Positions 21,531 to 61,800 are shown, numbered from the stretch's first letter. The stretch: DNA of 64,000 nt from Amoebophrya sp. A120 (GCA_905178155.1 CAJINV010000002.1:7160743-7224742); one strand, 5' to 3'. A program made the numbers and translations. Notes: generated from the letters alone by a model not told the origin.

Positions 21531-23895
21531 ATGCCGTCCCAACCCCCCTCGATGATGCCGGGCGAGGTCGAAGACATCCCGAAACTGGAAAAGGACCACC
21601 CGTATCAAATGTAAAAATGTCTGGGTCTGGAAACTTGTGATGCAAGAAAGGGAATAGTGAACTCACTATGATGCGCTGCCAAGCATGACAAGTTTTTTTC
21701 ATGGTTCTGAGTTGCGTATTCCGCATGACAAACTGCGTTTTTTGCATGACAGGGAGGAGGAGTTCTTCGCGGCCATGCAACGCAGAATTCAGAATCATGC
21801 CAGACTAGTATGACAAATCTTCTCGCAATCTCCCAGACCCAGACATTTTTACATTTGATAACCCGTCGGTCCAGAAATTGCTGGAATTCGACGCCAACTA
21901 CATGAAACTGGAGAAGGAGTTTATGAAGGAAAGTTACAAGTTGACCCAGAAGTACCAAAAGATGCAAGACGAGTTTTTGCAGAAACGATCCGAGGTGGTC
22001 GCGGAGAAGGAGGAGGTCCCGAATTTTTGGATTCACGTGCTGAAATCCCACCCCGTGCTGGCCGACGAGATTATGCCCCACGATTTGCCGGTGTTGAAGC
22101 ATTTGAAGAACGTCCGAAGCGAAAACTTGCCGGACCCAGAGGAAATGGGACAGAATGGTATAGAAGTTTTTTTGTAAAAATGCTTGCAAGAACTTTTGTA
22201 CTAGGGCGCTGGTCTTGCATTTCTTCATCCATGTCAGCTGCAAATTAGGCGGGGTGCGTACTACGTCAATAAGTGGCACAGCAATCACACAGTACAGACA
22301 GTCCCCGAGGAAATGAAGTATGATGATCAACATGAAGATGAAGTTGTCTGTTGTGATTGTGTACCTCTTGTTGTCAGTAACGAACAAGACATTTACTCTT
22401 ACACACTTCCCGAATAGGTTTCCAGATCACCTTCGAGTTCGAAGAGAACGATTTCATGGAGCAGACCGAGTTGACAAAAATCGTCGAAACCGAATTTGTG
22501 TCCGAGCACTTGACCGAAATCACCTGCAAAGAGGTGAAGATGGTGGAGGACATTAAGTGGAAGGTCGGAAAGGACGTTACGATCGAAATGAAAAAGCAGA
22601 GAGCGAACAAGAAAAACGCCTCAAAAAAGCCGGTATTGAAGAAGGAACCGCGAAAATCCTTTTTCCGAACCTTCTTCCGAACCATTGACGTTGAGAATCC
22701 GGAGGAAATTCAAGATTTGCTCAACAACGCGATGCAGGAAATGGGGTATTCATTTTTTCAGCTGCTTCGCGTGCAGCTTGCTTGTTAAGTGTGTTTTTTT
22801 TTTGTTTGCCAACACCGCCCAGACAGCGCAGTGATGTGGCCCGGCGATGCAAGTAATTCGAAGAAAGTACTATGCGTTTGCCATTTGCATTTTGATGTAC
22901 TAACTTAGTTGCCGTTGTGCATTTTTCTTTTTCATGTTTTAGTGTGTTTCAGTACATGAATTTTTTTTCCAAACAAAATGACTTGAATAACGATGGTATG
23001 GACGTCAATTGGTTTGCCTTTTGCAGCATTCACGCATAGATGCAAAAAAGTAAATGAAAAGGGTGGGTTTTATGCACTTTTCTGCGAATTCTCGGTCGCG
23101 ATATTTGTTATGATGCAAAGAAAATAAATTTAAGTGTCTCCTTTATCTAATCTCTGAGTGGATCTTGCATCACTCAAAAACAACGAGCAGAACACCATGC
23201 AGAGTAACATTAGTCTGCACGTTGTCGTGTGCGATGAGCACGACAGTTGATCATAACCTGCAGCATCACGGTATTCCAGATGTTGAGAGGAATGACGCAA
23301 GGCGAATCGGAATTCCAAATCACACAAATTAAACAGCATGGACCACGAGGAGGAGTTGGATGAAGAGGATCAGCAGGAGATGTTCGAAGAAGCGCTGGAG
23401 AAAGTTCAAGACGACGCCTACGAAATTGCCTGCACTCTGCACAACAACATCATTCCGCACGCGGTGAAATTTTACACCGGCGACGCAATGCCGCAGGACG
23501 ATGACGAGGGCGAAGAGGACGACGAGGATGAGGTAGTTTTTGTCTTGTGCTGATGTAACGCTCTTTTTTCTACGTTCATTCTATTTTTTGCGGGAGATCA
23601 TGATGAAACTGGTTTGCTGGAGCTAGTGGTGGCTTTCCCGATCATGCCGAACTAAGACCATCCCTGCGAATAACACATGCTTCTTTACATCAATGAAAAA
23701 AATTCAAACTTTCGATAGGATGACGAGGACGAGGATGACGACGAAGAATCGATCGAGGGCTCGTCCGACGGGGAGGATGGTGAGAAGAAGGAGAAGATGC
23801 CGCCAAAGGAACTCTTCAAACCGTCTGAGGGGAACACGCTCGGTGAGGGCGGCGGCGACAAGAAAGTCAACTCGGAGGAGTGCAAGCAGCAGTGA
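21531..23895 (+). CDS. NAP1: Nucleosome assembly protein (NAP1 family), 354 aa, 5 exons
   Basis: Motifs VPNFWIHVLKSHPVLADEI, DLPVLKHL, GFQITFEFEENDF, IKWKVGKDVT, SFFRTFF, NNIIPHAVKFYTGDA, acidic tail and C-terminal ECKQQ*. Introns: TIR element at 21603 plus GT-AG introns 22158-22417, 22746-23336 and 23533-23718; spliced length 1065 nt is a multiple of 3. Confidence 0.93.
21603..21860. mobile_element. TIR introner, family B (258 bp)
   Basis: Perfect 28-bp TIR TATCAAATGTAAAAATGTCTGGGTCTGG; perfect direct repeat ACCCG; removal gives KDHP|SVQKLLEF. Confidence 0.95.
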
Positions 23896-24574
23896 GGAAT
23901 CAATTTTGATTCGAGGTTTGATTTACCACCACGGGGCGGAGATGTTGTAATCTTGCTTGCTACAACGCCGGAATAAAAATGAATCTCATCAATAGCTAAC
24001 GATGAAACGATAAAGAGCCCAGGAACAAGGTCCTACGTCTGGCGAATTGTATTTGTTGAAGGTGAACGCAAGAAATTCACAGGGAATAGTACTAACTTGC
24101 AACTGCGACTTGGATGTTGAATGTTTCTTTCACGACGAAGTATCGCGCTTATCAACCCTTCTTTACGCAACAAAAGGGCGACATGGTAGTACGAACGACA
24201 GAAGATAGCAGCAGTGCCTGTTTTTCAGCAAATCTAACGAACAGCTTCAGCTACTTGCACAAATTCACCAGCAAGAGGAGTGACTAAGACGCTAAGAAAG
24301 TGACGAACGAAAGCGAACCATGCATCAGTACGATTTTCTCGCACTTAGAGAGACGAGCTTCCGGCGCTGTCTTTGCGGTGTGGTCGCTTCTTGAGCGATT
24401 TTTCTACGTCTTGTTTGACGCTGTGTTCCTGAATTCAACACGACCGCGCTTCATAATCGTACGACGGTGCGCTCAGCTCTCTGGCACGCCAAATGAAAAC
24501 GGCGAAGTTGTCTTCACTCAGACCACAAGTGATCTTCTCGCATAATTAGGAAGACAGTCTGTGTTTTTGGAGTT

Positions 24575-25116
24575 AATAAAAATAAAATTTTGAAATTTCG
24601 CGGATTGGTGAGAGCGAATTTGTAGAAAAATGCTAATTTGAAGCTTGAAGAAGGTTCCTTTGTGGCCGTAGACGGATGGGAGGAAGGCTCTGTGTCATTT
24701 TGAGTGAAGATTAACGACATATGATGGTTGTAATGCGATTTCCTGAAGTCAAAGTGCGCTGATAAAAATAAAATTTTGAAAATTCGCGGAATTTCGAAGT
24801 CGATAAAAATGAAATTTTAAAATTTCGCGAAGTATCCGAGCGCAAAATGGTCAAGATCTGCATTGGTAGAGTTGTGCTTTGCCGGCCGGCACCATACTTG
24901 ATCTTCATCCTGAGTTCAGATCTTGTTTCGAGCCCCAATAAAAATAAAATTTTGAAGTTTCGCGGATTTTGGGCAAACTAACTAAGTATGCAGTGAGTTG
25001 CTGCATGTCTCGCCTCAGTCTGAGCGTTGTCATATATGATGGATGCTAAGTTTGGTGTTGTCTTTTCGCATTCGGCGACCAACCTCAATAAAAATAAAAT
25101 TTTGAAAATTCGCGGA
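24575..25116 (+). repeat. Five dispersed direct copies of an approximately 30-bp AT-rich motif ATAAAAATAAAATTTTGAAA(A/T)TTCGCGGA
   Basis: Copies near 24575, 24761, 24801, 24937 and 25087, separated by unrelated spacers of about 10-155 nt. Confidence 0.85.
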
Positions 25117-25219
25117 TGAATTCTCCTAATGAAGGATCAAATCTAGTCGTTTATCACCTACAGACGACCCCTGAACGTCGTCCTCGCTTTGATTTATTGT
25201 GCCTGAGGGCTAGCGAGTC

Positions 25220-26242
25220 ATGGTATCTGGTGTTCGTGGTGGCGCAACTCGCGTGTCTGCCGTCAGTGTGGCGCATGCACAGCCCCCCCTCGCCCACACC
25301 GCGGACGCCGTTGGGCGACCGATTTCAGGGGGGTTCTACAACTCGCAGACCAGTTTACTGCAAGGAGTACATCAGCCACCGGCGCCGTTCAAGAACAGCA
25401 GCGGTTGGAGAACAGCACGAGTTGACCACCATGAACAGTTTGCTCCCAACGGTCATACCATGACTACCCACGCCCAAGACGCTCTGCCTCCGCCACGCAC
25501 CAGGATCGTACAGGCCTCCACGACCCGATGTGAGCAGCGAGCGCGGAAACGAGACCTCGTGCTTGATCAACTCAGACAACAGGCGGCGGAGCTGCGCCGG
25601 CGGGACCGCTTGCTGTGGACGTTGTTAGAGGAAAGGTTAGCGGCATCCCAGCGGATACAGACCTTGCTCCTGGACAAAAAGAACTTCTACGTTGGAGGCG
25701 TCGGGACTACTACCGCACGAAGACGTCGAAAGGCCGACAAACGCGGCACGTCTTTCGCTGAAGACGAGGACGACATCAATTGCGGTTCCAGCTACATGAT
25801 GGATGATTACGACGATGACCAAGTGGTGTTTGAAGATGGGGCGTCATCTCGTCCCTGGGACCACGACCAGCAAGCGCTTCGTGCGGGCGAAGATCATTTG
25901 CATCTCAATCATAGGCACCGCGCCGGCGCAATGAGAACTAGACCCCATGATGATCCCGCGCCAATTGATACTGCCACGCAAATAAGAACCCGAACCGCCG
26001 CTGGTACTACGTCCTTCCTTCCTTATCTGAGGAACTTGATTCAAAGCGCTGGCTCTACGGACGTCGCCACCTTCGAGGCGCTGTTCGACGCAATATTAGA
26101 CGAAGGTGTAGTGGAGGTTGATAGAGAAGAACCCCAGGAGGCCGATCAACGTTCTTACCTTAATATAGGCGAAAACGATTTGAAAAGTAGCACTTCTTGC
26201 TTGTCCTCTGCCATCTTTGACTTTGACGAAGCTTTCCTATGA
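25220..26242 (+). CDS. Hypothetical protein (up to 340 aa) with a short coiled coil; true start uncertain
   Basis: ORF with coding-like composition from about 25430 onward (RKRDLVLDQLRQQAAELRRRDRLL). Confidence 0.5.
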   Translation: MVSGVRGGATRVSAVSVAHAQPPLAHTADAVGRPISGGFYNSQTSLLQGVHQPPAPFKNSSGWRTARVDHHEQFAPNGHTMTTHAQDALPPPRTRIVQASTTRCEQRARKRDLVLDQLRQQAAELRRRDRLLWTLLEERLAASQRIQTLLLDKKNFYVGGVGTTTARRRRKADKRGTSFAEDEDDINCGSSYMMDDYDDDQVVFEDGASSRPWDHDQQALRAGEDHLHLNHRHRAGAMRTRPHDDPAPIDTATQIRTRTAAGTTSFLPYLRNLIQSAGSTDVATFEALFDAILDEGVVEVDREEPQEADQRSYLNIGENDLKSSTSCLSSAIFDFDEAFL

Positions 26243-27999
26243 GGCTGTGGATGTGGTTGCTCCTCATTAGACTGCATCGAGAATGAACGCCTCTCATTTA
26301 CACATACATACGTAGTGCGACGGAGCACGACGACAGACCAGATCCGTGAGACGAGAGAGAAAAACACAGAAACGGTATTTCGACCAGAGCGCATTTGAAA
26401 GTAGACGCGACGCATTAAGCAGCGCCTGCCTCATGGCTTGTTTGATCGTATATCTGGGCAAAGTGTGTTCTGTTCCACAACTGATGATTTTTAAATACAG
26501 TATGGACCCCCTAGATGCGTAAATCATCTTCATCATCATCGCAGGACGTAAAGGCCCGCGTGTCGTGGAAAGTCACGCTTCTCAGCTAAGGCTTGTTTTG
26601 ACGTGTGAGCCGAAGACTCCTCCGTGTCTGTGCGGACGTCAGAACATTTTTTATTTTTTGTAGCAGGTTCATCTACTACAATGGATATAGATGTCTGTGA
26701 CGAGTCCGAGAGAAAGAACTGCGACTGCATCAAACAGAGCAAACGTAGTATTTTGTCATCATGTTCCTGTGGAGGTCTAGCTCAGTGCTGCGACTGAATG
26801 AGAAGTCAGTGTAGCTAAGTGTAGAATTGCGAATCCATTATTTAATTCTGATATTTTTTCAAATTGTTGTAATAACATTTACACTAACAAGTCCAGCAGC
26901 GTGCATCGATCTTGTATGTGGGATGAGGTGAAAAGTTTATATCTGTGATGTACTACTTTTTTTTGCACAAAGATGTATCCGCTCTGTCGTTGTTGTCCGA
27001 GGCGTTTTCAAAATACAGCGCTAGTGCGAAAGTTAAGCTTCTAGATAGTACTGGCACACTGACCGTGGGCGTGATGTGTTCAGGAGTTGTAGAGCCGCAA
27101 AAACAAAGCAAGACAAAAGCTGTGTTATGGGTTCTTTTGCGACGAGAAGCATCATCGTATATTGCCTGGTAAGTACATGATTTCATTTTGTTTGTTCACC
27201 GTGTTTTCACTGCAAGGTTTTGTAGGGAGAAAGGAAAAGTTAGCTTTTGTGCAATCGGGAGTAGCATAGAAATTAGTCGAGATTTTTTACTATGCATCAA
27301 ATTGAAAAAGCTTGTGCTGAGAGGAAATCGTTGTTGCAAGTATGGACGCCGTGATCTCCACTCTGAAGCAAGCCTCTCAGCGCTTCGACGACCTCCTGGT
27401 ATCACAAGAAAAAGCCTTAACGTTAACGGAATATGTGATGCAGAAATGCATCGCAAGACGTGTCGGAGTTTGTCATGCATAGCATGCATATTGGGCTACA
27501 TTTGTGACGCATGACTACAATCTGTGAAAACCGTTAACATTAACACTTTTTCTTGTGATACCTGGGTGGCGTCATTGAGGATCAAGACGCGCGCGGAGTG
27601 GTCGTGAATTTTACGGGCGTTGCGATTTTTATGCTGATCTTCCTCTCCGGTCCCTTCGAGTGGTTCGGCTCGACAAAGAAGGCGGAAAAAGAGCAAGCAG
27701 AAGCTGTGGGAGCAAAAAAGAAGTGACCGCTAACCGCAATAATTATCGATAGGACCAGAGCAGTAGCTTTAGTTAGTAGACAGGAAGAAAATAATTGCGT
27801 CTCGTCGCAGGCTGAAGGAGCAGGAGGTCCGTTTGTGCTCTCACTGCAGAGGCACGAACTTGAGCCATTCTTTCCGGTGCGGACAAAGCTGCAATTCAAC
27901 ATTTTCCAGACCTGCTTCTAGTGCCGCTAGCTAACACGGCAGCTATCCTTCGGTTCACGACGTAAAAATCCACAAACCAGCCCCCAGGAATCCAACAGA

Positions 28000-30966
28000 A
28001 TGCCGGAGCCACTGGTTGACAACACCGGCGCCTCTGCCATGGAGGTCGATGAGATATGCACTGCAAAAAAAATATCGTATTTATAGTATGAAGTACACCA
28101 TCTTCACTGAACGATAGAAAATGGTGAATAGGAGATTCTGATTCATCACAAGATGAAGGCGACAGAAAGTAGTGTCATGCGCCATTACATACTTGTACGA
28201 AAGCGATACTTTTGATCTTTTGCAGTGCATACAAGACGACGAAGAACAATAAGCGGACGCTGCAGCGGCGAAGTGTCATGGACAACGCCGTTCCGCCAAC
28301 AGACAAGGCTGACGGGGGCAGGTAAGACTAAACCTAGAGGAAAACTATTGATGTTGAAACAAATGTTCGTGCGGGTCTCCTTGTTTCCACACCACACATC
28401 ATGATATCTATGAATTTTTATTTATCTATTACTTGCCTCTTTTTATTTTTTTCTGAAGGTGTATTTTGCTCCGGTTCTACTTATAGTTTCGCAACTCATC
28501 ATTCAGAACGCCGCCCGGTGCCCTGTCGCAGAGCCACAAGCGAGCGCGCAACAGCATGGTTGTCGACCAGAATGGCGTTTTGAAACAGAAAAACGAACTC
28601 TGCGATGCGGTGCTGGGCATCGGCATACCGCACGACTGGACCCGGATAAAGGCGGAGGGGCCCCCGAACGAGGAGGACAACTACGAGATGACGGAAGAGG
28701 GCGAAAGTGACAACTCGCCCGACCGAAAGCACAAAAAAGTGCCTACCTGGTGTATTGAACAAAATTTTTTAGATTACCCACCAGTTCTTGATGTTGATTC
28801 TGCTCTGGAACTACTAAGTTGTGAATGCAAGTAGAGATTATTGAGTTTGGGTTTTTCTTTTTATTCATCGTTGTGCGGTGGTTTCTTATGTTGTGCATAG
28901 ATAAGGATAAATGTGAATTACAAATTCTTCTAAAACAGGCCAAGAATGGGCAAAAGCGGTGGAGGAGCAGAGCGTTTATGGAAAAGTGGCAAAAATAGAT
29001 GCGTCAGAAAAAAGGCAAAGAATCATCAACTACCAAGCAACTTCTTCATCTTCAGCCACGGAGGTTTTGGATCGGGAGGAGCGACGTGAAGTTCGCCATC
29101 ATTTATCTGCATCAAAAGACGAAGTCCAAGAAGTCGCTGTCGCGCATACGTGCATTACAAATTCTATGCCTATTTCTGATGCCTTATACTTTTTCGATTT
29201 CATACTTTCATCGACCCAGATACGGTTTTCGGTGGAAACATGCAGCAAGTGGACCTCCACGAAGTCTTCGGCGCCCCATCGGAGCCGAGCAAAAGGGGTA
29301 CTTGATTTATCATAAAACTATACTCAAGAAAGCATGGGTGCGCGTCGTCTGGCATGAAAGGCGCAAAAAATTGCAAACTTGACTATACTTTATAGTGATG
29401 TATCACATCTTCAGAGGACCACGATTCCCTTTGGACAGGGCTGCTATGAGTACTGCCATTATACCACGACTTTTTCACGTGACATTGCAACACTGCTCAG
29501 GTCGCCGACTATCCGAGACTGCCATGCAGGAGCCGCAGCGAAGATGGTTCCGGGACAAGTTGCGGAAGGTATCCTGTGCAAAAGTATCGTACTCGTACAA
29601 ATGCAATTCTTGCATTACAAATATTTTTCTTAAGGTAAATCAGCATGACAAATTTTATTTCTTATGCGGAGAAAATTTTTTTATACGAGTACGATACTTT
29701 TGCAGTTCATAGAAGGAAGAAGTTTACAATTACGTCCAAGTAATGGGACAGAGCAAACGCATGGACCATTGTATTCTCAGGAAAAACTGCATCTTCACTG
29801 TGAATTGGCGTTTTTTGGACTAAGTTCGTTTCGTATACACATGGACATGACAGAAGACAATTTGTCATGCGTGCTTGTTTTATGAACGTGCCCAAAACAC
29901 GATCCGTGAAGATAGTGACTACTCGTGCATTTGTAGCAAGACAACATCAAGCGGCGTTAGGGATGTTGTATTCTTGGCGCATGAAGATCTTGTTTTCGTC
30001 GTGGTACTGGTACGACATTAGTGATTGACAGTGAAAGCACGTCTTTTCCGTGCGATACACGTATGGCTGAGGCCAGGCGAGGAGGAGCGACAGCAGGGGA
30101 GTTCAAGTTCCTCGGCTACACTGACCAATCGGCCGTTTCTGTTGAAAAACGATTCCACGGGGGGGATCACCAATACAAATGCAGCACAAGGCGCGCAAGC
30201 GTCCGTTCCGTCCTCGTCTTCTGCGGCTGCGGCTGGTACTACTAGTAATTTGAACAACCAGCTGCAACCGAATTGCACCACTACCAACGGAACGTCAACA
30301 CTGGCAGCACCCCCACCTGCTCCTGTTGTACCAGTTGCAGTGACCGCTGGTGGCAATCAACAAGCGGCATCGTCAACACTACCGGAAGTTGTAGGCGACA
30401 AAGCTGCAGCTGGGGGAACCAAGGTACTATTTGAACCAGCTGCAGCAGCGAAAAATACAAACCCCGCAGTAGGATCAGAAGCAGGCCCTGTGCCGGGAGC
30501 AGCAGCTAATGCAATCACAAATCCCGATCCCGTGGTGACGGCCGCAACCGCACCACCAGCGCAGCCGGCTTCTTCTTCCTCTTCGAAGGAAGCCGTCGTG
30601 GCTAGGCCCGAGCAGCAGCAGGAGGAGGTAGGGAAGAAGAAGGGAGGTTCCACTGCCAGTAAAACCTCGATGAAAAAGTCCTCGGCTCCCGCGGTGACCG
30701 CAGCAGCCGCCGGTCTACTGCAGGCACAGTCTGGCTCGGGAGCAGAACAACCCGGCTCGGTGGGTGGAATGGTCGCTGCAAATAATAGCACGGGTGGCGG
30801 TAGCGTGTCCGGCCCCAGCAGCTCCGCCCTGGGAACGGCCAAGGCGAAGTCCAAGGCCAGCAGCGGCCGGGTCGCAAAGGCCAAGTCCACCAGCACAAGT
30901 TCCAAGTCAGCGAAAATGAAAAACGCACCGAAAAAGGACCAGCAGAATCCTTCAAAGGAGGGATAG
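28000..30966 (+). CDS. INCENP IN-box (Aurora-kinase-binding) domain protein with A/S/G-rich tail
   Basis: Spliced core reads EDNYEMTEEGESDNSPDRKHKKVPTWCQEWAKAVEEQSVIDPDTVFGGNMQQVDLHEVFG...KRGRRLSE...WFRDKLRKEEVYNYVQVMGQ, an IN-box-like pattern. Uses GT-AG introns 28752-28938 and 29298-29500 and TIR elements at 28055, 28977, 29570 and 29772. The junction near 28322-28506 could not be resolved. Confidence 0.7.
28055..28231. mobile_element. TIR introner, family A (degenerate, 177 bp)
   Basis: TATGCACTGCAAAA...TTTTGCAGTGCATA; flanks TGAGA/CAAGA. Confidence 0.8.
28977..29204. mobile_element. Degenerate TIR introner (228 bp)
   Basis: TATGGAAA...GCGTCAGAAAAAAGGCAAAGAAT pairs with ATTCTATGCCTATTTCTGATGC...TTTCATA; element+5 gives EEQSV|IDPDTVFG. 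Confidence 0.75.
29570..29711. mobile_element. TIR introner, family A (142 bp)
   Basis: TATCCTGTGCAAAAGTATCGTACTCGTA...TACGAGTACGATACTTTTGCAGTTCATA; perfect direct repeat GAAGG. Confidence 0.93.
29772..30057. mobile_element. Degenerate TIR introner (286 bp)
   Basis: TATTCTCAGGAAAAACTGCATCTTCACTGT pairs with ACAGTGAAAGCACGTCTTTTCCGTGCGATA; flanks CATTG/CACGT; links into the frame of ORF 30025..30966. Confidence 0.72.
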
Positions 30967-32058
30967 CGAGCAGGATTGCGAGGTAGAAATTAGCTAGCGT
31001 ACTTCAGGAGCTCATAGGTCGCTGCAATCCAACTGAAGAAGAAGATGAGGAAAGAAAGAATTTGTGTAGCTGGGACACTTCTACACAAGTGACCAAGAAA
31101 AACAAAGATGGCGCTATTGGAGAAAGCCACTCAAAAATCAGACTTCAAGGAAAAGTGCTGCTTTTTTGAAATCCTTTACATATATTTTTCAGTATTCTTC
31201 ATCAATATCAGTTAACATCTTCCGACAACTAATTTCAGTAGTATAGAAGCTGTAAAACAAACTACCTCCGAAGTAATCCAAGCGATTTTATCTACACAAG
31301 CGACTTTTTGTTTTTTGTTTGAAGTAGAGCGAAGCAGAAGCAGCTCTCCAATGGGATGAAATTGGATGCGTTTTATATGTTGGGGTTAAGATGAAATTGA
31401 AAACGCAATGCAAGGCACTCTGACTCCTGCTGGGGCAGACAAGATTTGCAAATGAAGCAGTGACCACGACCCTTCCACACTTTTTAAGATTACAAAGACG
31501 AGCCCGCGCTGTGAGGGACTTTGACTTCATCATGAGTGGGTCTCCAATAGAGCCACCTGGTGTCTGTTTTGCTCTGTCGTCGATAGAGACGCTACGCCAT
31601 TTCATGATCCTACTGAGCCTTACAGATGATGGAGAGCGAGAGAATGACAGGCGACGTGCACCACGTGCACGTGGCACGAAAGTCGTCAATTACCTTTACA
31701 GATCCGTGCGTACTGCAACACCTGTTGAAGTTCTAGTTTGCTGGAAGCGTGCATGTTGCGAGATCTCATACTGATTCTAGATTCTACTCATAATAGTGGA
31801 TTCAGCATCAAGCGGGCGGGCTGCAGTTGTGAGGTGGGCAGTCTAGCATCCGGGCCGCAGTCTGTGAGTACTTACGGTGCCGCGCTCTAGTACAACTTAC
31901 AAAAAACCTAGTCGACATTTCTCGCGACGTAAAAGTCATCTACTAAGATGGCTCATAACCCCGGCTCGTTTCACTCCGCCTTGTGGCGTCAGGTTGCTGC
32001 TACGTCTTCAAGGCTCAGAACAGGGACTTCCAAGAGGACGACGACCCAGAACGCCATC

Positions 32059-37076: not shown

Positions 37077-37838
37077 AGGGTCAGGGGTTGACTTGACTAC
37101 TTGACTGCGCGTATAGCTTGACTGCGCGTATAGTTATGTCGCAGTGGAGGTCTCACTAGTAGGCGGAGATGAGCGATGTACAGAGACTCAGTAGCGGGCA
37201 TTCTCGCAGCACCATAGATAAGGTCGAGCTCCTCATCTTTCAGGCCCTTTTTTTTTTCCACAGTAGTTTCTTTTGTGAGTTTCTACTTTCGCGGCGACCA
37301 TTTGCATCTTTCACAGCGCCCGGAAAGCGCGACATCTGATCGTGAAATGACATAATATTTTTTTCCGTCGAAGGAGACATAGAGATAGAAGATGAACTTC
37401 TTGATGAAGATGATTTTGCACAGCAGTTTCGTTGTCAACAACGAGAACGACGTTGTTTACCTGTCTGACCGAAGGTGTCAAATGCAAAGTACTCAGGCGA
37501 TCATACTGAAATCCGTCACACAATCGAGGAAAAATACTCAGGATCAACTTTTATCGAAGTAAACAAAGGCTAAAAATCATATCCGCTAAAGATGTATCGG
37601 TCGCATGTGATTCTTACCAAGGCATGCAGCAATCGCGAAAGGAATTATGATCCTGATCCATCAAGATAAAGTGGTAAATACACACAAAAGATCTTGGCAC
37701 CTTGGCGGCAAAACTAAAAATGAGTTGTTGTGGGTCGGCGAAGCAAGCCTGGTGTGCTGCGTCCATGCTTCCAATCTCAAAAAAAAAAAAAAACAGTCAT
37801 TGCTTTTTCGAATAAGTCGCTGGACTTCAACGTCAGCC

Positions 37839-37914
37839 TTATTGTAAAATCGCAACCTCTCATCTCATTCACTCCATCAAGCTTTATTGTAGAATCACAA
37901 CCTCTCATCTCATT
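37839..37914 (+). repeat. Intergenic direct repeat, 2 x 31 bp (TTATTGTARAATCRCAACCTCTCATCTCATT)
   Basis: Copies at 37839 and 37884. Confidence 0.7.
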
Positions 37915-38139
37915 GGTTACACTTGTATACGATACAATTTGTATGATTCCAGATTGTCATCCTCATCATATCCATACCTCATAAGTATATCCACATCCGG
38001 TTGTATTGTGATAGACAATCACGATCAAAATTTTCATTGTATGATTTGCCAGAAACTATTAAACACGAAATAAAGTAGAGATAGAAACAACAAAGAAACA
38101 GGTTCGTCGCCCAGTGCTCAGGAGCTGCACCAGAACAAA

Positions 38140-49800: not shown

Positions 49801-52800
49801 GTCGAGGAGGTCAAGAAGTTCGAGAAAGAGATCAACTTGGAGAAACTCCGGATCTCCTCGGAAATTCGGGATTGCGACCAGGAGGACATTCGCGAGGAGT
49901 TGCGGATGGAACGGAGGAGACTAGACGTCTTAGACCGTGACTTGATCGACCACATGAGCGCTTTCCGGGAAATCGAACGGCAGGAAGACCGGATTACGCG
50001 ACGCATGAAGGAAAGCGACCCGGGCTTGGAGATTTCGCAGCCTGGTGGAGGAGATCATGGGCAGAAGACGAGGAACATAGGGGCATTGATGTTGAACAAA
50101 GCTGAAGCTCGTGATCACGATCAACAAGAAAGTGCTGGCGATCCTGCTCCAAATAAAGCTCCAAAAACCGCGGCCACTGCGGCGTTTTCCGGCCTGATGA
50201 CCATCCTTGCGCACAAGGTGGCGAGCAACAGTGACGTGCAGGGAGATGTGAAGACCGCTACGGAGAAAGCGAGCGGGAAGATGAAGATGAAAATGACCGA
50301 TGGTAGCTCTGACGACGAGAATCAGAACAATGATTCCAGTGGAGAACAAAGAAGCAAACAAGCTTCGTCCACGCAGCAAAAACGACTGACCATGCTGGAC
50401 CTGCTTCGCGACCGACACATGCTGCAAAAACTCCTGGTCCACGCGCAACATGCGCTCTTCTCCCGGCGACAGCTGCTGCAGAAAGTCCGGCGACAGAACT
50501 TGCGAGCGCCCAAACCGGATCGCCTGCTAGACGTTCTGTGCGACGAAGAGGTTCGGTCGATTGATTCCCAGTTCCGCTGGCACCACGAGCTGGAGGCGAA
50601 CATGCAGCAATCGTTGCAGCCGAGACTGTTTTCCGCACTGGATGCGACGACAATCTCGACGGTAAAGCAGCTCGAGCAGTACGAAATGATCACGGCCGAT
50701 TTCCTGTACCAGTTGAACCTCCGTCATCGCCTGATTTCTAAGCGCGCGGAGTTCCGGATTCCCATCTGGGCGGAGCTGGAAACTTCGACCAGCTTTCCGG
50801 AAGCGTTTATTCCAGACGAAATGGGAATCGACGCGATAGGAGATCGTGGAGGAATAGAACTACAAGAAAACAGCAGCGAAAAGCTTCTTGAGCATGACTT
50901 GGTTACCACCTCTCTGAAACCACTGGACAATGTTCTGCTCCACATCGCGGACCACGATGCGCACTACGACGTACAGGAAATCATGGACGATGTCCAGGGT
51001 GCGGACGAGAAGCACGGCAAGCAGATGAATGGCCTCGTGAAGTTGGGGAATCAAGCCCCGGAGGGAGAGCAGCAAGGAGACGGCGCAGCAGCACAGCCGA
51101 AAATGAAATCCGAAGAAATCGTCAAAGCGGAGGAAGAGCTCGCGAACTTGCGAAAAGAGGCAGAAAAGTTGTTGCAGGATAAGACGTATCCTGTGCAAAA
51201 CTACCATACTTGGTATGAAGAATTCAAATTGCAGTCATGCGACCTGATATATAAAAAGTAGTCTCTTTCCAGAGCATTACAAATGCCATTTTTCACAAGT
51301 TCATTTTTTTTGATGCAATTTAGTAGCTTGAAGTATGACACTTTTGCCATGCATAGCACTCTCCCGGCGGAGGAAAGAAAGAAGAAGTGGCTGGAACTGA
51401 TGGAGCACGAGATGGACGCGGAGAAGCACCTGGAAGCGGTGCAGGCGAAGGTAAAACTGCTGGAAGTACATATCCTATTTAAAAATGTCCCTACCCCATA
51501 GTTGTAATGCAAATCTGCATGCTGAAAATGTTTCTCATGCGGAGCCCCATGAGAACCATTCTCTAGTCGTGTTTTGAAATTTGTCATGCTCCAATCAGCA
51601 TGGTATGCTAGATCTGTGATGCTGCTCAGCTAGCTCAAACAGCACTACACTACGAATCCAAATTTGTCATGCAAAACAGCCAAAACTTGTGGATTTGTCT
51701 AGCCGATTCCCCATCTTGCCTATGGTGTGGGGACGTTTTTACTCAGGATACTACACCAAGGGGGAGAGGACGGGGATCCGCACTCTTCCACAACAGATAT
51801 GGAGAAAAAGATGCAGGATTTGGTGAACAAAGACGGACAGGAGCCAGAGATGAAAGAAGAATCTACCGGCGCCAGCCTGCAGGGGCTGATGACCGTTTTG
51901 GCCATGCGGGTGAAGCAGTCCGCGGCCGTCGCGAAGGCGGAGGAGGAGGCGAAAACTCAGCACGCGAAAGAGGTGAAAAAGTTCAACGAGAACCGGGTAA
52001 TGTCGGCCCTCGCGGACTTCTCCAAGGCGAATAAGGGTGCGGCGGTGCTGCACGCGAAGGCGTTAGACGCACTTTCTAGTGCGGCTGACTATGGGAAAAA
52101 TGACCGAATTGAGGTGCTGAAAGCCGTCACGACCATTAGTAAGCAAGAGGCGGAGGCGGTGAAGAAGTTTAAGTTGAAGGAAAGAATCAAATCCCTCTTG
52201 GTGCCAAAACGGGACCCGAATTACGTTGCGAAAGAAGGCGAAGGAACCGAAGCGCTAGAAGAGAAAGACGTGTTTTACCAGTTTATGACGGGGGAAACCG
52301 AGAAGAAAATCGCTGAAGCGTTGGCCGCGGAATCACTCACCGAGCACGTCGAGACCGATGTCGGCCGCCTGGCGAATTTGAAACTGAAAACGCAGGCGAA
52401 ACTGGCGAAGTTGCGGAAAGAAATGAACGAAACCGCGAGGAGCAAGAAGGAAGACGAGGAACAGGCGAAACAGACCGCGGAGCAAGAGAAAAAAACCGCG
52501 GAGCAAGAGAAAAAAACCGCGGAAATACTGGAACACGCGAAACAAAGAACCCTGGAGCGCAGCAAAGGGAATCAGTTAGACATTGAAGAACAGAAAAACA
52601 ACCTCGCGGCTTTTGCGATCTTGAAAGACCAAGAACACACAATCGAAATGATTTCCAAAGAAGCACAGCAGGTGACCACTGCTTTCGCGGGTTTCTTGTC
52701 CGATTGGACGGAGAAGGTGACCGACCTGTTTGAGGATGAGGAGGTGCTGAAGGAGAAGCAAAAGCGGATCGAGGAGGCGAAAAAGCGAGTATCGGAAAAA

Positions 52801-55800
52801 ATCGACGACTTGGAAAAGCGCGAAGAGGAACTTGCCGCGGAAATTAAGAAACGAAAAGAGCAATCCACGGCGCAACTCCTCCTTTCCGTCCGGTCAGTGA
52901 AAGTGAAGAACGCGTTCCAGGAGATGATGAAAAAAAAGAAGCAGTCGATGAACGCGTCGGAGCAAGACGAACTGGAGAAGCACGGCGATTTTTTGTCAAA
53001 GGTCGCGAATCGAATGGCCTTATCCGGAGGAATTTCGGCAACGGATAAGAAAAAATCAATCGAAGACCAGAAGCGGAAGCAGGAGCTAAAGACCCTTCTG
53101 AAGACGAAACTTACCGCGGTCAAGGACGAAGTGAAGATCAAATCCATTTTCGGAAAGATGACGGGGCAGGATTCCAAAGTGCGATTTGAGGACGATGCGT
53201 TGTTCGACGAATCTTTCGAATTACAGACTAAATTAGACGAAGAACAGCGAGCGAAAATGTCGTACCAGCAGCTCGCCGACACGAAGGACGCGCTGAAAGC
53301 GCTCGCGTCGGAAGCAAGACGAATCGGTCTGATCCAGTTCCTACTTGCTTTGAAGCGCGGCTCGTTATTTTCCGCTTTGTGGGGGGAAGAGGAGTTAGAG
53401 TTGAAATACCCGAGGACCGGGAACCAGCGGGGCACGAAGCAAGCGGCGTTGCGAAACGCGGATCAATTGCAGGAGGTCGAGGCTGTGTTCAAAGTTCTCG
53501 TTAAGGAGATGGTGTTCCGGAAAAAGGAGAAGCAAAGCGTAAGGGGGAAGAAGCTCGCTAAGCTTGACACTGATTTGGAGTTGGCGAAGAGTGAGTTGAA
53601 GCAAGCGGAGGAGGATTTTGTCAAAGAGAAGGAAAAGCTACAACGGCAAGAATCTTCCGGGATGAACACGAGCAACAAACAACTCCAGGTCGAGGTGGCG
53701 GAGAAGCTGAATAAATTCGAAATCGAGTACAAAGCGAATACGACGAAGCTTCTCCGGAAACAGGGCCAGCTAATCAGTGAGAAGAAACAGATCAAGGGGG
53801 ACCAATTCGCCGAAAGGTCCGAGAGGGAAGAGGTTCTGGACCACTTCTTAGACTACTTGCGAGCTGTTTTGTACCACTCTGGCGAGACGACCGGGCTGTT
53901 TCTAGCGACGTTTCAGAGCAAGAAGGAACTAGCGGAGTCGGAGTCGAAAATTGTAGAGGAAGATAGCGCGGCGGCCGGGGCTTTGAACGGCAACAAGGAC
54001 AAGAGTTCCTCTGAAAACAGCAGTTCCTTTTACCAATCTGACGACTACAAAGCGGAAGCGGCTTTGGACCTGATCCTTCAATACTTGGAGGATTACTACG
54101 CCGATCTCATCGCAACGAAGGAACAGCTCGTGCCGAAGACGAAAAACTACTGGCGTGAGCAGGTGAAAAAGCAGAAAAGGTCCACGCTTTCCGAAAGGCT
54201 TCTGCGCAGAGACGTCGGACTGCGGGAAAACTTGTCGGGAGTGGGAAGTAGCAGTTCTTTCGGAGGGCAAGCGGTGGAGGAGGAGGTCAGGAAGTTGCTA
54301 GATTCGAACCGGAAGGAGAAGAAGGAGGTGATCCAAGAGGCGCTGGAGGTGTTCGATCAGAAGACGATCGAAAATCAGACGGGCGAGTTTGTGGAGAAGC
54401 CGTTTGTGACCTATTTGAATGTTCTGAGTCGGAACACTTCGGAGGAGCTCGTTGCGAAGCTCGCGTCCTCGTCGAGCGGTTCGTTTTTCTACAGCAGTAG
54501 GCAATTGTTCGAGCCGAATGTTGCGGAGTTACTGTCTTTAATCCTCCCCTTTTCCGCGGGGGAAAGACTGGAGTTCGATGCCGTCACCTTACATCAAGAC
54601 TTGGAGCAAAAAGCGTACCAGATCTGCGTGAAAGTCTTCGAGGAAACAGACAGCGGGAAAACGGAGATCTTGCTTCTCTGCGACTTGTTTTCCCAGCTCC
54701 TCGGCAGGGAGAAGCAGTCCTGTCGGGAGCTGGCGCGGAAAGTCATCGTGCGGAAGATCCTGTTGTCTAACCCGCAAGAAGTGCTGGAACAGATAACGCC
54801 GGAGACTTTAGAAAATACTAACCAAAACAGCCCGGATGTTGACCTACAGGGGGATTTTGCCTACCTCGACCGAGTGACGCCGGATTTCACGAGTTCGAAC
54901 GCGAATGGGGTCGGGGAAACCGCTGCAGGTGGATCTTCGTACATGCAAAAGCAGAATAGCCATCTGCACGAATCCTTCGGGCGGCTGGCGATGGCGTTGG
55001 TGTTTGGCCGTTACAGGACGTACGTGGAGGAGTTGCATTGGAAGAACGTGGACGATGTGATTGAAGAAGGTTCCGCTTTTCCAGAGGAGGAAATGAGTCG
55101 GGCAATGGTGAGACTGCGGGCTTTTGAGCAAGAATTTCTCATCCGGAAAACGCCCACCATGAAATTTGCGGATAATGGGCGGGGCGGGCAGAATGGCGGA
55201 GCTTCTGCGGATACGGATCATGTGAACGCGATGAACTCTCCGATGATGTACTACGGAGAGATGGAAGCGATCTCGTCGGGCAAACGAATGTTGAAAAAGA
55301 AGAAGCTGTCTAGCAATGACAGACTGGGATCATCATCGTCAGGATCCGCGCTTGGCAGTGGATTTGGAAATAGTGGTAAATCGAAAATGTTGAGTAAAAA
55401 GAAGCAAAAGAGCATGATTTTCTTCGGTCGTTCCGCGACGCTGGACCAACTCCCCGAGTACCCGACAGCGGTTGTCCCCGGGAGAGACGGCATGGATGAC
55501 TTTGTTTTCCGAGACGTACTGGGTTTGGATACCAGCAAACAGGGTGGTTTAATATCCCTCGCGTCGGGTGACGAAACGAAGTACCTTCTGGATTCCCACA
55601 AATTGCTGATCGCGACGGTTGCGCGGATGATGCGGGCATTGGCATTTTCGCTGGAGTACACCACTTTTTTGAAGCACAAGTTCCTGGAAAACCCGGATTT
55701 GCTGTCCAGCAAAACGGCGTCCGGGGCCTCGGATTTGAAGCTGGCGCGGAAGCATTTTCGGTTCATCCAAGATTTTAAGCGCGGGATTTTGGAAAGAGTG

Positions 55801-58800
55801 AACACACTGCAGATCCGGCTGGCGTTCGAATTCTTCTTCAAGACAGACGTCGCGGACAAATACATCGACTTGGAGCGGAAATCGCTGGGCGAGCCGGTGC
55901 CGGTTTTCTCGGAAAATTACCCGAACGCGTACGAGTTTCAGGTCTTTGGATCGGGCGAGGCGCTGTTCTTCGCGAACCAATTTAGGAACGCTTTGCCGGT
56001 CATTTTGAACTGCGACGAGAACACTTCCAGATTGCGGAAGGCGAACAAAGCGGAGCAGGAAGGAATGCGGGCGCAGTACGGGGGAAGAGGTGCTGGTGGG
56101 GGCAAGAAAATGAAAGGCGCAGGAGGAGTTAGTGAAGTTGATGACCGAGGAGGGTCGAATAGTAGAGCGTCGGGGGATCAAACTTCTTCCTCCAAAACAG
56201 AACAGCACCAGCAAGACGGCACGTTGGCCACCGATCCAAATCAAGACTACGCCTCGATGTTTGCGGAGTTTGTCACGGCACAGGCGGAGGGGTTACGAAG
56301 GAACCACCTGATACTTCACGACAGCGACTATTTTGGCTACCTCCCGACAGACCGCGACAGCAAGAACAGCCACGAGCCCCTGTTTCAGGTTTCGGACCTC
56401 ATGCCTTTCGTCGAAGCAGTGAATCAATTTTCTTTGCAGGCGGTGCAAGTCCAAGATCTGCTTGTCCTGTTGGCCCATGGCGGGGAGGAGTGGTCTTTGC
56501 GGCATCAGCAGAACATCAGTCATCAACAAACGGCGCAACAAGCAAGAACCTCCGACAGTACCGCGGCAGCGGAGTCACTCAAACAACTTTCGGACCAGAT
56601 GCGGAACTCGAAATTTTTCGAATTCTTTCTGCACGAGACGGAGGTGGTGCGACTCCCGGAGGAAAGGTGGCGCGAGGCCGGGGACCCACTTTTAGAGACG
56701 GGGGAATTCGACTCAGATGGTTCGAGCTTCGAAGAAGTGGAAGTAGAAGCGAACAGTTCTCCCGGGATCAAGAAAACCAATGGTACGGCGGCCGCCCCGG
56801 TCTTGTTCATGAATGATGCTGATTATGGTCCGCCTGCGCCGGGCACGCAGCCGCAATCAACACGAGGTCGAGCAGGGCTAGCTGTTTTTTCTTCACGCGT
56901 AGGAGCTGGTCCGACAGCCAACACCGGAATTTTGAAACACGATGAAGATACAACTACAACAAACAGCGAGAAAAAGTTTCGCTTCCCACCGTCTTCTTCT
57001 GCAGCACGTAGTACCTCCCGTGCGAGGGATAGGTTAGCACATCCGGAGAGCACGATGAAGATGAAACAAACGCCAAGTTTTTGCGCGTCGCCCTTCTCCT
57101 TGCTTTTCTCAAGTCAGCAAGCTGCGACCACGCAGGCTGAAGTTCGTGAAGATGACGACGACTTGACAAGCGAAGTGCAAGCGCTCGATCATAATTCATC
57201 CGACGACGAAGGAACAAGTGGCCGCGAAGGAGTAGTAGACCTGTCCCCCGGCGATTCCCTAGTCTACGGCCTAGAGGACGATGTTGAGGCTGGGGACCAT
57301 GATGACAGCAATGGTTTTCATCCGAAGTACGCCGAGCGGGTGGGGGCTGGAAGCTACAACTCCAGTCCCTACCGTCTCCTCTCCTCGAGCACAGGAGCTT
57401 TGCACTCTACATCGTCACTTCGACCGAATTTCCTCTTCTACAACGACAGCAACACGAGTACAACCGCCCAGAAAATCTTTTTCATCGACGAAAAGACCAT
57501 TCCGAAACCGCCTTCCGAACCCGTCCCCTTCCTGTACGGCATGCTCAGCGCCAGTTTGTCTTCCAGCAAGTACCGGGAATTCGGGATTTCCGGTTGGGAG
57601 CAGCGGTCCATTGACAAAGATGTCGTACTGGCGGACGAGTCGGAGATATCCGGGACGGACAAAGTCCGACAATTATTCGGTATCAAACTGGACTGGCGGA
57701 AGTTTCCGATCGTTTTAGTTACCGAAGTGGACGAAAAAACGCCAGACGGGTCGGACAACTCCCGGGCGACGAAGGGAGGCATCGTGGTCGGGGATATGCT
57801 GGTGTTGATCAACGGCGAGCGAATCACCACCGTCGCGCAATTGCGGATCGATCCCGCCACCGAAAAGAAAAACGCCCATCCGGACAGCGTCTTGATTTCC
57901 ATGGTGGCGAAGCGGGTGAAGGCGGAAAAGGCGACCATTTGCTCCTGGCTGTTCCTGCGGAAGAAATACCAGTGCCAACTGCGGCAAATTTCCTACAAAC
58001 CGGGAACGGATGGGGAGTTCGGGATTACTAGGTTTCTCGACAACAGCTGCGAGATCTCGGAAGTATCGGATACCTCGAGCGAGCAAAATTGGGCGAAGAA
58101 AAACGAAGTCAAAGTGGGAGACTCGGTATTGTTTTTCGACGCAGATTTTTTGCTCAAGAGACCGGAAAAGCTCTCTCTACCCGCGACCACAGCGAAGAAC
58201 TCGGTGGAAGTGCTGGTGTTTCGCAAAATGCCCGGCTTTGACAAAAGACTCAACGAATCCAACGTGGCGAGACCACTATCTCCGACGTGGGAGCAGCTGA
58301 TCCAGAGATTCACGTCGAAGTGGGAGGTTGGAACAGGTACAAGTACTGGCGGTGGAAATGCAGCAGCCTCAGCAAGCTTCGCAGGAAACAAACCAGCGAT
58401 CACTTCCTCTCTCGCGGCGTCCGCGTCTTCGTCCAGTTCCGTAGTTCCTTCTTCCCTCAAGCGGGTCTGCAACCGGTCCGCGCCTCCCTCCACGCAGTTC
58501 CTATACGCGATTCTCGCGGCGTCCATAAAAGCCGATAAGTACGCCGATTTCGGCATGTCGGGGTGGCAGCAATCCAGTGTCGATGAGCAAGTGCTCGACG
58601 ACGAGCAGCTCACTTCTGACGAGAAGATGATGAAATTGTTCGGGATCACACTCGACTGGCTGAATTTCCCCGTTGTCACGGTTTCGAAACAAGAAGCGGC
58701 GAACGCAAACGGGGAAAAAACGCGGGCCGCGAGCGGGAACATTGTCGAGGGGGATATGCTTTTACTGTTGAACGGGGAACTATGGAAGCGTCAGGATTGA

Positions 58801-61800
58801 AATCGTCAAAGTTGAAATAATTTGTAATGCATAAAAAGCGACGCAAAAAGTGACTCTATTGCAGAGGACCCACGGGAGGCAGATTGTAGTCCTGGTAAGG
58901 GTCAAAAGTTGGACTGCTAACTACCATGACAGAAGGCAGCTCTTTTGCCCTAAACCGCATGACAGACTCGCTTTCAGGACAGGGAAAATCTGTCATGCGC
59001 CGACTACAAACTGTAGGTCTAACGTGTATGCGTTTTATGCATGACAAATTATTTCAACTTTGTCGATTTCAACTCTGACACATCCATAGGAACGAGTGAC
59101 GACCATTGCGCAGCAGTCCTCCACGACTTTCCCAGACCCGAACGAGGCGGTGTTAAGTTTGGTCCGGAAGCTACGTATTGCAAAAGTATCGTACTAGTAG
59201 AAATCGCATTACAAATTCGGCCAGCATGACAAATGGAATCTGTAATTCGGGTTTAACTTGACAAAAAAATTTGTAATGCATAAATGCGATTGCTACGAGT
59301 ACGATACTTTTGCACAGGATAGAAGCAGGTAGTCGAAAAGCAGAAGAAGGCCCAGTTCATCTTTTTCCGGAAGAAGTACCAATCTACTTTGATCCAATTG
59401 CAAGTGACGGAGGAGGACGCGAAAAATTTTACCACTTGGGGTATCACTGTCTCTGAAAAGGCGAAAGTGACGGAAATTGAGGAAGGGATAGAGGAGGAGA
59501 CCTCTTTTGCGAAGTCCAACAGTTTGCAAGTGAACGATCAACTGATCATTATCGACTCCGATTTTGTCTTCGCGAAACCGGACAAGATGCAGGCGTATCT
59601 GGACAAGAATAACGGAGAGCCTGGCTCGGTCATGAAGGCGGGCACGCAAATTTTGGTGAAAAGACTGCCGCCAGGGTTTCCGGAAGCGTTGAGAATACGG
59701 GAGGCAAATGTGGAGCGGGCGTTGTCGAGTAAGTGGCAGAAGTGGGTCAACGAGAAAGCCGCGTCGAGTGGCGGACAAGTTCAGCTGCCGGGTGCTGCTG
59801 CTGCTACGACGGTTGCAGCTGATGCTCAGGAAAAAGAGCCGGCACCGGCACAGTCGATGACAAAGTCAATGTTGGTGGGAGGAGTCTCCATGAAGGGAGG
59901 GGAGGAGTCGATGACAAAGTCAACGAAGGAGAAGTCTCCATTTGCGTCCATGGCCGAGCCAGCGCCGTCGATGACGAAGTCGATGTTGATGGAAAAGGAA
60001 AAATCTCCGTTCGCCTCAATGGCCAAAGCGAAGGAAATTATGAAAAAGGAAGAAGAAAAGCCAAAGCCAGGTGTGCCTGCTGCAGGAGCGGAAAATACAG
60101 CTGAGAGGACAGCAGTAGCTCCAGCTGCTGCTGCCTCGTCACCTGGAGCTCCTGCCGCTTCATCCTCCGGTCATCTCTCTCGTCGTGTGAAAGACACGTC
60201 TTCCCCACCTACGACCCAATTCCTGTACGGGATTCTCGCTGCGAGTCTGTCCGGGAGCCAGTACGCAGACTTCGGGATTTCCGGCTGGCAGCAGTCGTCG
60301 ATCGACGAAACTGTTTTGGACGACACAAATTTGACTGCGGATGAGAAAATGATGAAGCTGTTCGGCGTCCACCTGGACTGGATCGATTTCCCCATCGTGA
60401 CCGTTTCGAAAATGCAGGAGAAAAACGAGAATGGCGAGCCAACTCGAGCGGCGAGCGGGAAAATTGCGGAGGGGGATTTGTTGTTACTGATCAACGGAGA
60501 ACGGGTCACGACCGTCGCGCAACTGGAGAAGCCGGCGGACGGGAGCCCCCCGCCGGCACATCCGAACGACGCGGTGTTGGCCATGATAAAGAAACAGATC
60601 GTGACCAAGCAAAAGAAGGCACAACTCTTGTTTTTCCGAAAAAAATACCAAGACACGTGGTTTCAGTTCCAGGTGACCGACGAGGACAAAAAGAACCACG
60701 CGCACTGGGGCTTTCTCGCCGCGAACGGGAAGGTGAGTGAGATTTTGAACGCACCGACGGAGAACAAGAAGCACAATGACCCGGAGCACCCCTACCATTC
60801 TTGGGCCGCGAAGAACAAACTCGAGGTGAATGACAAGATCCTCTTCGTCGACGCCGACTTCATATTGAAAAAGCCGGAGAAATTGGACCAACTGCTGCTG
60901 GATCACCACCAGAACCCGGAGTACGACTTGCCCATGAAGCACAAAGCCGGGACGCAGGTCTTGGCCTTTCGGAAGCCACCCGGGTTCCCGGCTGCGCTCC
61001 GGGTCAGGGAAAGCGACGTGGAGCGGAAATTCGGGCGGAGGTGGGAAAAAGCGGTCGGGCGGGTGGAAAGCGACACAGTACAACATCAGCACAAGGAAGC
61101 CGTCAGCCCGGCGAGCGCTTCCGCTGTAGTGAAACCGGAGCCAGAATCCATGAAGTCGTCTACAGCAAAGACTTCTGCGGGTGAAAGTGCTGCGGCAGAG
61201 CCAGAAGTAAAAGCGGCCGCCAAGACGAGCGAGGCTGTAGAGAGAAAAGACGGAGACCAAGGAAAAGCTCCTTCCACAACGGCCACAATGAAGGCGGAGC
61301 TTGAAGAGGAGCCAGACGACGCTTTTTCCCTCCTCGCGAAAGACAAAGAAAAACTTTCAACCACCTATACTGGGTTGAAGTTGAAGGAAAAGCAAACCCC
61401 AACCCCGATCTTTCACTACGGTCTACTTGCGGCGAGTCTGTCGAGCAAACAGTACGGGGAGTACGGTTTCACGGGTTGGGACCAGAAGACGATTGACGAA
61501 AAAGTTTTGAGCGACGACAGCCTGTCCACAGAGGATAAAATGTTCAGGCTGTTCGGCCTGACCCTGGACTGGTCCGGTTTTCCCATTGTCCGCGTGAAGA
61601 AGCTGGATTCCGCGAACAAAACCGCGAGGGCGGTGAACGCGGGGGTGGATCTCGGTGCGATGTTGCTGCTCGTGAACGGGGAGAGAATCACTACAATCGC
61701 ACAGCAGGTGAAGGAGTACCCGAAGTCGCCGGACCAAGCCATTCTCGGACTCTGCCAAAAACGGTTTGAAGCCGGGAAGCGGATGGCGTTTTTGTTCTTG

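Follow-up and report, generated by a model that had tools for sequence, protein, structure and literature searches.

Introner elements of Amoebophrya sp. A120 were described by Farhat et al. 2021 (PMC7789003). The A120 introners have an inverted repeat that starts with TAT, followed by 7 variable nucleotides and at least three A, and direct repeats of 3-5 nt, given as 5 bp in the legend of Fig. S19. They are reported with non-canonical ends and co-oriented gene blocks, and a hairpin model was proposed. Non-canonical introns make up 65% of the RNA-supported introns of A120 (Table S4, PMC7789003), and their removal is left open in print, where even the borders are called unknown; according to the legend of Fig. 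3, their position with respect to the hairpin is unknown or varies. No transposase was found in A120 by these authors in what that source reports. In Micromonas and Aureococcus, introns derived from miniature inverted-repeat transposable elements (MITEs) are inserted both ways (review PMC10228655). The methods of Gozashti 2022 allowed for opposite-orientation insertion, and the list in Gozashti 2025 includes introners of A120 from several transposable element classes. The present analysis concerns the introners in a 64,000-nt stretch of A120 DNA (GCA_905178155.1 CAJINV010000002.1:7160743-7224742), the whole of which is referred to as the window.

The repeats of the window are the A120 introner elements of Farhat et al. 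2021 (PMC7789003), a class already known. The catalogue holds 31 of them, 94-363 nt in length, with the anatomy of TAT…ATA terminal inverted repeats (TIRs) within a 5-bp target site duplication (TSD). Members of one family are inserted in both orientations within genes of the same strand, and the segment absent from the mature sequence is 1 nt, the element and 4 nt.

Two-way insertion within families

The host genes of the window lie on the plus strand, as an earlier note made from the sequence alone had claimed: every open reading frame (ORF) of at least 700 codons is on this strand, and codon scores favour it in 29 of 31 bins of 2 kb. Orientation of the elements was judged from body alignments, with 55 nt cut off each end and z calculated against shuffles. 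In family C, TATGGATGTGTCAGAGTTG is located at 32263 (+), and 59070-59088 carries the reverse complement of this sequence. The trimmed body of the forward element, 32263-32569, aligns to that of the reverse element 58781-59088 with z 12.9 in the opposite and 2.5 in the same orientation, so that the mutual inversion proposed in the earlier note is borne out by motifs and bodies alike. The second reverse copy, 34356-34662, lies in the same gene as 32263 and gives 17.4 and 1.8.

In family A, TATCCTGTGC is located at 2503, 29570 and 51187; the elements 4442-4601, 47855-48004 and 59172-59321 terminate in the reverse complement of this sequence, in agreement with the ends read earlier for this family. 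The first group consists of forward elements (2503-2647, with the TATCC arm first, 29570-29711 and the decayed 51187-51355) and the second of reverse elements. Their bodies are inverted as well, with z 8.6 opposite versus 2.7 same for 2503 and 59172, 6.9 versus -2.0 for 29570 and 47855, and a weaker inversion signal for 51187 (3.0-5.5 opposite). The element 2316-2465 is also reverse and the A-like 46401-46584 is forward, while the A-like 49105-49254, with symmetric arms, is not callable.

For family B the earlier reading holds in part. The copies 21603-21860 and 46721-46983 had been taken as inverted on the basis of their subterminal sequence, but their bodies are co-oriented (z 8.2 same versus 2.0 opposite); it is the third copy, 48042-48305, that runs against the other two (z 8.7 and 14.3). 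The subterminal stretches of about 50 nt in 21603-21860 and 46721-46983 do look swapped (90% over 51 nt), which suggests an end exchange or an internal inversion between repeats. As a separate observation, raw RNA run X5 contains about 185 reads of one sequence of about 90 nt, placed at 48040-48128, that is 88-95% like a family B end and has other flanks; these reads are a related element retained in RNA from another locus or strain. The inversion of the family E elements 44899-44994 and 49664-49772, also proposed earlier, is likely, given 74 bits inverted versus 43 bits co-oriented over the full length; the bodies are too short for the standard trim and give z 3.1 versus 0.6 at a 35-nt trim. 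The two family D elements, 33808-34089 and 51471-51750, are co-oriented. Two-way insertion is seen in families A, B and C and is likely in family E.

The same picture extends beyond the window. At least 140 loci with the family A arm were collected elsewhere, a second arm being present for 125 of 142 arm matches. Ends are well placed in 120 copies and the host strand is callable in 87, of which 58 are forward and 29 reverse. This 2:1 ratio (p=0.002) was set aside as a true bias, since the search required an exact arm and non-seed A copies stand at 3:11. Among 63 neighbouring elements outside the search pattern, about six of them with misplaced ends, both orientations occur in six of eight families.

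Removal from transcripts

Joints of the RNA type come from contigs of runs X8-X10, which represent one sample; the status of these runs as RNA is a guess, and the listed pieces are mismatch-free. The 15 joints listed, of 32, comprise six of GT-AG type and nine at elements, and all nine of the latter remove the element length plus 5 nt. They cover a family B element in a NAP-family gene (21603-21860; joint 21597>21861, removing 263 = 258+5) and the forward family A element 29570 (147 nt removed). The others are at the TIR element 27400-27560 (166 = 161+5), the A-like 28055-28231 (182), the decayed 28977-29204, which has the ends TT..TT, and 29772-30057, also decayed, 35423-35721 with a TTT start (304 = 299+5), the decayed 35787-36035 (254) and the TIR element 36158-36310 (158).

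For the reverse copies of families A and C, the evidence of removal is provided by public gene models. Two exons of the window match the NCBI Amoebophrya sp. A120 protein models P0002 and P0004 at 100%; the public models derive from alignments of transcripts and proteins, no ab initio prediction being used and the longest ORF being chosen (PMC7789003). P0004 is identical over 2013 amino acids to a splice that removes element plus 5 nt at 2316 (reverse, perfect TSD CGTGG), 2503 (forward, TSD ATCAC), 4442 (reverse) and 7745-7977, a TIR element with the 3' end AGA and the TSD CGAGA. The gene of P0002, modelled in part at 31948-36400 on the plus strand, carries nine elements with both orientations of family C, and the model equals the same splice at all nine junctions. 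These are the C elements 32263 (forward, TSD CCTTC) and 34356 (reverse), the decayed 32654-32987 and 34874-35236, the short 33176-33272, which body alignment relates to 7745, the family D element 33808, and 35423, 35787 and 36158. Had one orientation remained unspliced, the earlier note would have been undermined; both models remove both. With the homolog P0003, removal of element plus 5 nt scores best at seven of the nine junctions, ties with plus 2 at 34356 and is one point behind plus 8 at 36158.

Reading frames lead to the same length. Deletion of element plus 5 nt gives a frame of 5358 codons over ten elements (45849-64000, plus strand) and one of 2374 codons over three, both of which are broken when 0, 3, 4 or 6 extra nucleotides are deleted; in the longer gene, 16 of 177,147 frame combinations are stop-free. 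The homolog P0005 tracks the resulting frame. It aligns without a gap through the reverse A element 47855, the forward A element 51187, 49105 and 51471, and has gaps at or close to 46401, 46721, 48042 and 49664. Joining the sequence across the reverse C element 58781 yields a repeat that is collinear with three paralogous ones. Elsewhere, 43 of 125 family A copies have confident frames on both flanks, 40 of them strand-concordant, and removal of element plus 5 nt restores the frame in 39 of these 40 (26 of 27 forward and 13 of 13 reverse).

Removal might conceivably take place in DNA, as with the TA-bounded internal eliminated sequences of ciliates. TA is present at both element ends, and the guessed RNA status of runs X8-X10 would allow for it. 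This is nevertheless very improbable. Element-free contigs are also without GT-AG introns, and depth tracks genes, the bin 24462-25038 having 0.1-0.2 versus 108-300 for the NAP contig (X8, X9). Contigs of run X1, with a flat depth of about 30 outside elements, pass from exon to element without differences among the joints listed. Moreover, the ciliate process leaves one TA behind, whereas here both TAs and one TSD are removed.

Position of the cut

Copies in which the two TSDs have diverged allow the joint to be placed. For the RNA joints, the cut is allowed after TSD position 2-5 at 28055, 3-4 at 28977, 4 only at 29772, 2-4 at 35787 and 3-5 at 36158. The ranges meet only after position 4, as is forced by 29772, where the joint 29770>30062 is unambiguous (GT..CG) and cuts 1 nt before the element and 4 nt after it. 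P0002 fits a cut after position 3 or 4, with lower scores for cuts 0-2 and 5, and requires 3-4 at 32654 (TSD TTTTT/CCCTG); P0004 requires position 3 or later at 4442 (TSD CGATG/CAGCG). With the joints placed in this way, the intron comprises the element with 1 nt before it and 4 nt after it, i.e. N-TAT…ATA-NNNN, and the mRNA retains four bases of the left TSD copy and one of the right. This 1/4 cut is directional relative to the transcript, although the element itself is symmetric. The register is consistent with Table S4 of PMC7789003, in which A120 introns start with N-T and all 18 listed top non-canonical end types of both strains have T as the second base.

Splice motifs and end triplets

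The elements do not have the GT-AG ends of canonical U2 introns. A GT-AG reading is available at one of the 31 window elements (29570) and at one of 87 family A copies elsewhere, and at any register in one of 32 candidates. Counts for donors, folds and GT-AG given over 32 still include the candidate 37988-38072, which was dropped when transcript contigs were seen to cross it gap-free; counts over 31 exclude it. The RNA joints of elements end in CG, TT, GA or AC, and neither G at +1 nor AG is required for removal. The idea that each orientation carries a conventional branch point and AG acceptor of its own, which would have told against the earlier note, can draw on a terminal AG slightly above chance in the window (6 of 31, p=0.03). 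It is highly unlikely in view of the rarity of GT-AG readings and the variety of joint ends, and is largely refuted by the unambiguous GT..CG joint of 29772.

At +2, T is present in 32 of 32 candidates, partly due to the design of the search. G at +1 was considered as a splice signal and rejected, as it is enriched in the window (17 of 31, p=0.003) but not in the A copies elsewhere (30 of 87, p=0.29). The G in the window has a mirror counterpart in a C at position 1 of the right TSD copy (14 of 31, p=0.013) and lends no support to recognition by the spliceosome. Host GT-AG donors of the window read GTA in six of six cases and GTAT in three of six; no branch consensus is visible in these six introns.

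The end triplets are the most durable part of the elements. Over the 31 elements they show 4 mismatches in 186 positions, versus 35 in 155 for the TSDs, and in the nine elements with RNA joints 1 in 54 versus 12 in 45 (p=4e-4), a comparison not fully free of ascertainment, given that six of the nine also passed a search that requires TA. The energy of the arm duplex weakens with TSD decay (rho 0.66). Since the end triplets outlast the decay of both TSD and hairpin, it is likely that short symmetric end signals set the cut.

Possible roles of the hairpin and of an internal motif

Young elements fold strongly, with z down to -17, although the prediction leaves the terminal 7 nt of family A unpaired. 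Sense and antisense folding energies show no bias (16:16). Little arm pairing is predicted for 28977 and 35787, yet both are spliced exactly; for 35787 the predicted fold has no pairing between the arms, although the isolated duplex still has z -3.1. The neighbours 2316 and 2503, which face opposite ways, are predicted to form one composite hairpin of -168 kcal/mol, compared with -51 and -56 singly. Despite this prediction, P0004 keeps the 32-nt exon between them (2470-2501, plus strand), which could be explained by folding during transcription. From these predicted folds, the long hairpin seems not to set the cut.

Paired inverted terminal repeats can trigger SOS splicing, in which scrambled arms also work and which is hence blind to orientation (PMC12779559). 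A sequence-independent hairpin excision of this type is unlikely to account for the A120 elements. SOS splicing is imprecise and leaves indels (PMC12779559), whereas here 9 of 9 listed joints are exact, although contigs drop rare forms, and the end triplets are conserved; nor is the composite 2316/2503 hairpin excised as a unit in P0004.

Pairing may still matter to some degree. Among the A copies, 30 of 58 forward and 7 of 29 reverse ones have arm variants with a G-U reading in the sense RNA (Fisher p=0.02), with variant-free copies at 28:22. This was one of several tests, and the excess does not reach significance when all paired columns (p=0.08) or arm positions 8-30 (p=0.17) are counted, nor in the window (39 versus 33, p=0.56). 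Transcription-linked mutation was considered as a cause and is not obvious, as in the body of family A sense A>G (0.064) does not exceed T>C (0.083). Selection on arm pairing is suggested, and a supporting role for pairing is possible.

A rival explanation is a spliceosome-independent nuclease and ligase (RtcB-like) that would recognise the TIR stem together with the end triplets and whose 1/4 cut would be staggered, in the way suggested for the nonconventional introns of euglenids. The geometry is similar, the euglenid TIR pairing +4..6 with -8..-6 (PMC11282704) where +2..4 here faces -7..-5. The dispensability of G and AG, the failure to detect U1 in A120, the strong folds of young elements and the G-U variants on the sense strand can all be read in its favour. 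On the other side stand the weakness of the G-U signal in the wider tests and in the window, the exact splicing of weakly paired elements and a conserved +2 U that fits the register of host donors. Such an activity is a serious possibility, if a doubtful one. In its full form the proposal would be tentative in the same measure: a second precise splicing system independent of the spliceosome, using the TIR stem and UAU/AUA triplets to cut 1 nt before and 4 nt after, with religation. If true, it would be the precise counterpart of SOS splicing, handling most introns of a genome, and any insertion, in either orientation and at any site, would restore the original mRNA.

An internal motif, GCATnACA / TGTnATGC, is found across families and on either strand, at 9.1 per kb of element versus 0.04 per kb of exon. 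A protein bound to this symmetric motif, for example a domesticated transposase, might direct removal. This is improbable, as no exact motif is found in six of 31 elements, including 35423 and 35787 with their RNA joints, and the motif would more simply be a transposition signal.

The earlier note had argued from orientation-independent removal to recognition of either the TIR hairpin or a symmetric protein-bound motif. That both orientations are removed without a conventional acceptor stands. Two-way insertion alone does not exclude directional spliceosomal signals, however, and the cut is itself directional. The premise that such signals cannot serve both orientations fails, because an inverted repeat offers the same N-UAU and AUA-NNNN ends either way. 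The TIR hairpin belongs to one of two live mechanisms, and not to the better supported one.

Proposed mechanism

The explanation preferred here, which has about an even chance of being correct, is that a relaxed U2-type spliceosome excises the elements, the two end triplets being the signals that it reads. The end of the element would supply a donor-like N-UAU in the register of the host GT-AG donors, and the 3' cut would be measured 4 nt past AUA rather than at AG. Arm pairing would likely do no more than bring the two ends together. Orientation would be irrelevant because the inverted repeat reads alike from both sides. The original mRNA would then be recovered from almost any insertion site, and the invasion would thereby be explained. 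The +2 U is the most fixed base of a donor. The contigs of runs X8-X10 in which the elements are missing are also without GT-AG introns. For A120, the small nuclear RNAs (snRNAs) U2, U4, U5 and U6 are reported, as are most proteins of the spliceosome (PMC7789003). The TSD and TIR anatomy suggests that the elements would have spread as non-autonomous DNA transposons.

Several points weigh against a relaxed spliceosome or against the uniformity of removal. U1 was not detected in A120, as far as PMC7789003 reports. The six host GT-AG introns have no common AUA at -7..-5, and the 3' rule would for this reason be a second mode. The end triplets could have been kept as a 3-bp pair or protein site and not as snRNA signals, and the spliceosomal chemistry (lariat, branch point, dependence on small nuclear ribonucleoproteins) is hypothetical. 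Among the 15 joints listed there is none at a reverse A or C copy, and models based on the longest ORF would hide imprecise or skipped forms. One element, the decayed 36761-36995, is read through in P0002; as a side observation, its removal by the rule would give a different and shorter C-terminus (read by eye). A noisier frame test favours removal of element plus 5 nt in only 51 of 87 A copies. Finally, the ends of Table S4 were set by the authors' pipeline within ambiguous repeats.

That exons can be invaded without change to the protein is explained by a fixed rule, under which 1 nt, the element and 4 nt are removed in either orientation without need for G or AG. The rule also permits correct re-annotation and gives exact ends for the mapping of lariats or circles. 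Natural tests that set hairpin against end-signal models are offered by the inverted neighbours 2316/2503 and by 35787, which is decayed yet spliced.

Anatomy and assembly of the catalogue

Most elements were discovered by a TA…TA inverted-repeat search; 28977, 29772 and 35423 came from RNA joints alone, and 7745, 32654 and 33176 were added on reading-frame grounds. Candidates 7780-7883 and 23419-23557 were discarded as chance matches. As in the published A120 introners, the window elements have an inverted repeat with TAT, 7 variable nucleotides and an A run, with A at positions 11-14 in 23-26 of 32 candidates, families C and F being without the A run. They also have direct repeats in the range of 3-5 nt (a perfect 5-mer TSD in 13 of 31), and are repeated and absent from transcripts. 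Of the 125 family A copies elsewhere, 94 have a perfect 5-bp duplication and none a duplication of 6-8 nt. The elements correspond to MITEs, having TIRs, a fixed 5-nt TSD, no coding capacity, a length of 94-363 nt and many copies (at least 140 loci for a single arm). A search of the window against Rfam gave no match, and in Pfam 13 queries from the window matched only NAP and, weakly, PDZ.

Host genes and other observations

The product of 31948-36400 is a hydrophobic protein with internal repeats and no Pfam match, its nine elements lying within about 4.4 kb. At 33330-33467, a frame-keeping GT-AG intron is retained in P0002 as 46 extra residues with no counterpart in the homolog P0003, and is likely an artefact of annotation due to choosing the longest ORF. 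The protein of more than 5300 residues contains four domain repeats with a weak PDZ-like score at 57529-61707. At 24571-25117, where there is almost no transcript depth, an AT-rich motif of 35 nt (family D12) occurs in five dispersed copies. A 15-nt tandem repeat at 10822-11031 lies within an intronless ORF of 704 codons (10000-12111).

Comparison with known systems

A literature search found no orientation counts and no 1/4 register for A120 in the sources covered, subscription papers being outside its scope, and Figs 3, 4 and S19-S25 of PMC7789003 may show part of the register already. In the text considered, Farhat et al. 2021 (PMC7789003) use 'orientation' of genes only, whereas two-way insertion is described here within families; the 1/4 register and the end triplets that outlast the hairpin are likewise added. 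The TIR introners of Aureococcus and Micromonas (Huff et al. 2016) are also MITE-derived and inserted both ways, according to PMC10228655, but have canonical splice motifs and co-opted splice sites (PMC7789003), whereas the A120 ends need not be canonical.

The nonconventional introns of euglenids similarly have a TIR stem set back from the ends, TSD-like repeats and non-canonical junctions (PMC11282704). They differ in their offsets (3/5 with CAG/CTG, versus 1/4 with TAT/ATA in A120) and are reported to leave as circles without a lariat (PMC11282704). The introns of Fritillaria borealis are likewise MITE-derived, with TIR and TSD, and are excised there by an adapted U2 spliceosome (PMC11282704, PMC13326754). 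Their preferred ends are AG-AC / AG-AT and U1 is conserved, in contrast to NT-NN and an undetected U1 in A120. In SOS splicing (Zhao et al. 2025, PMC12779559), elements with inverted terminal repeats also leave mRNA without GU-AG, but imprecisely and independently of sequence, whereas removal in A120 is exact and the end triplets are conserved. What the A120 introners of the window show is real and belongs to an element class already known, and the cut rule is sharper than the published rule found.

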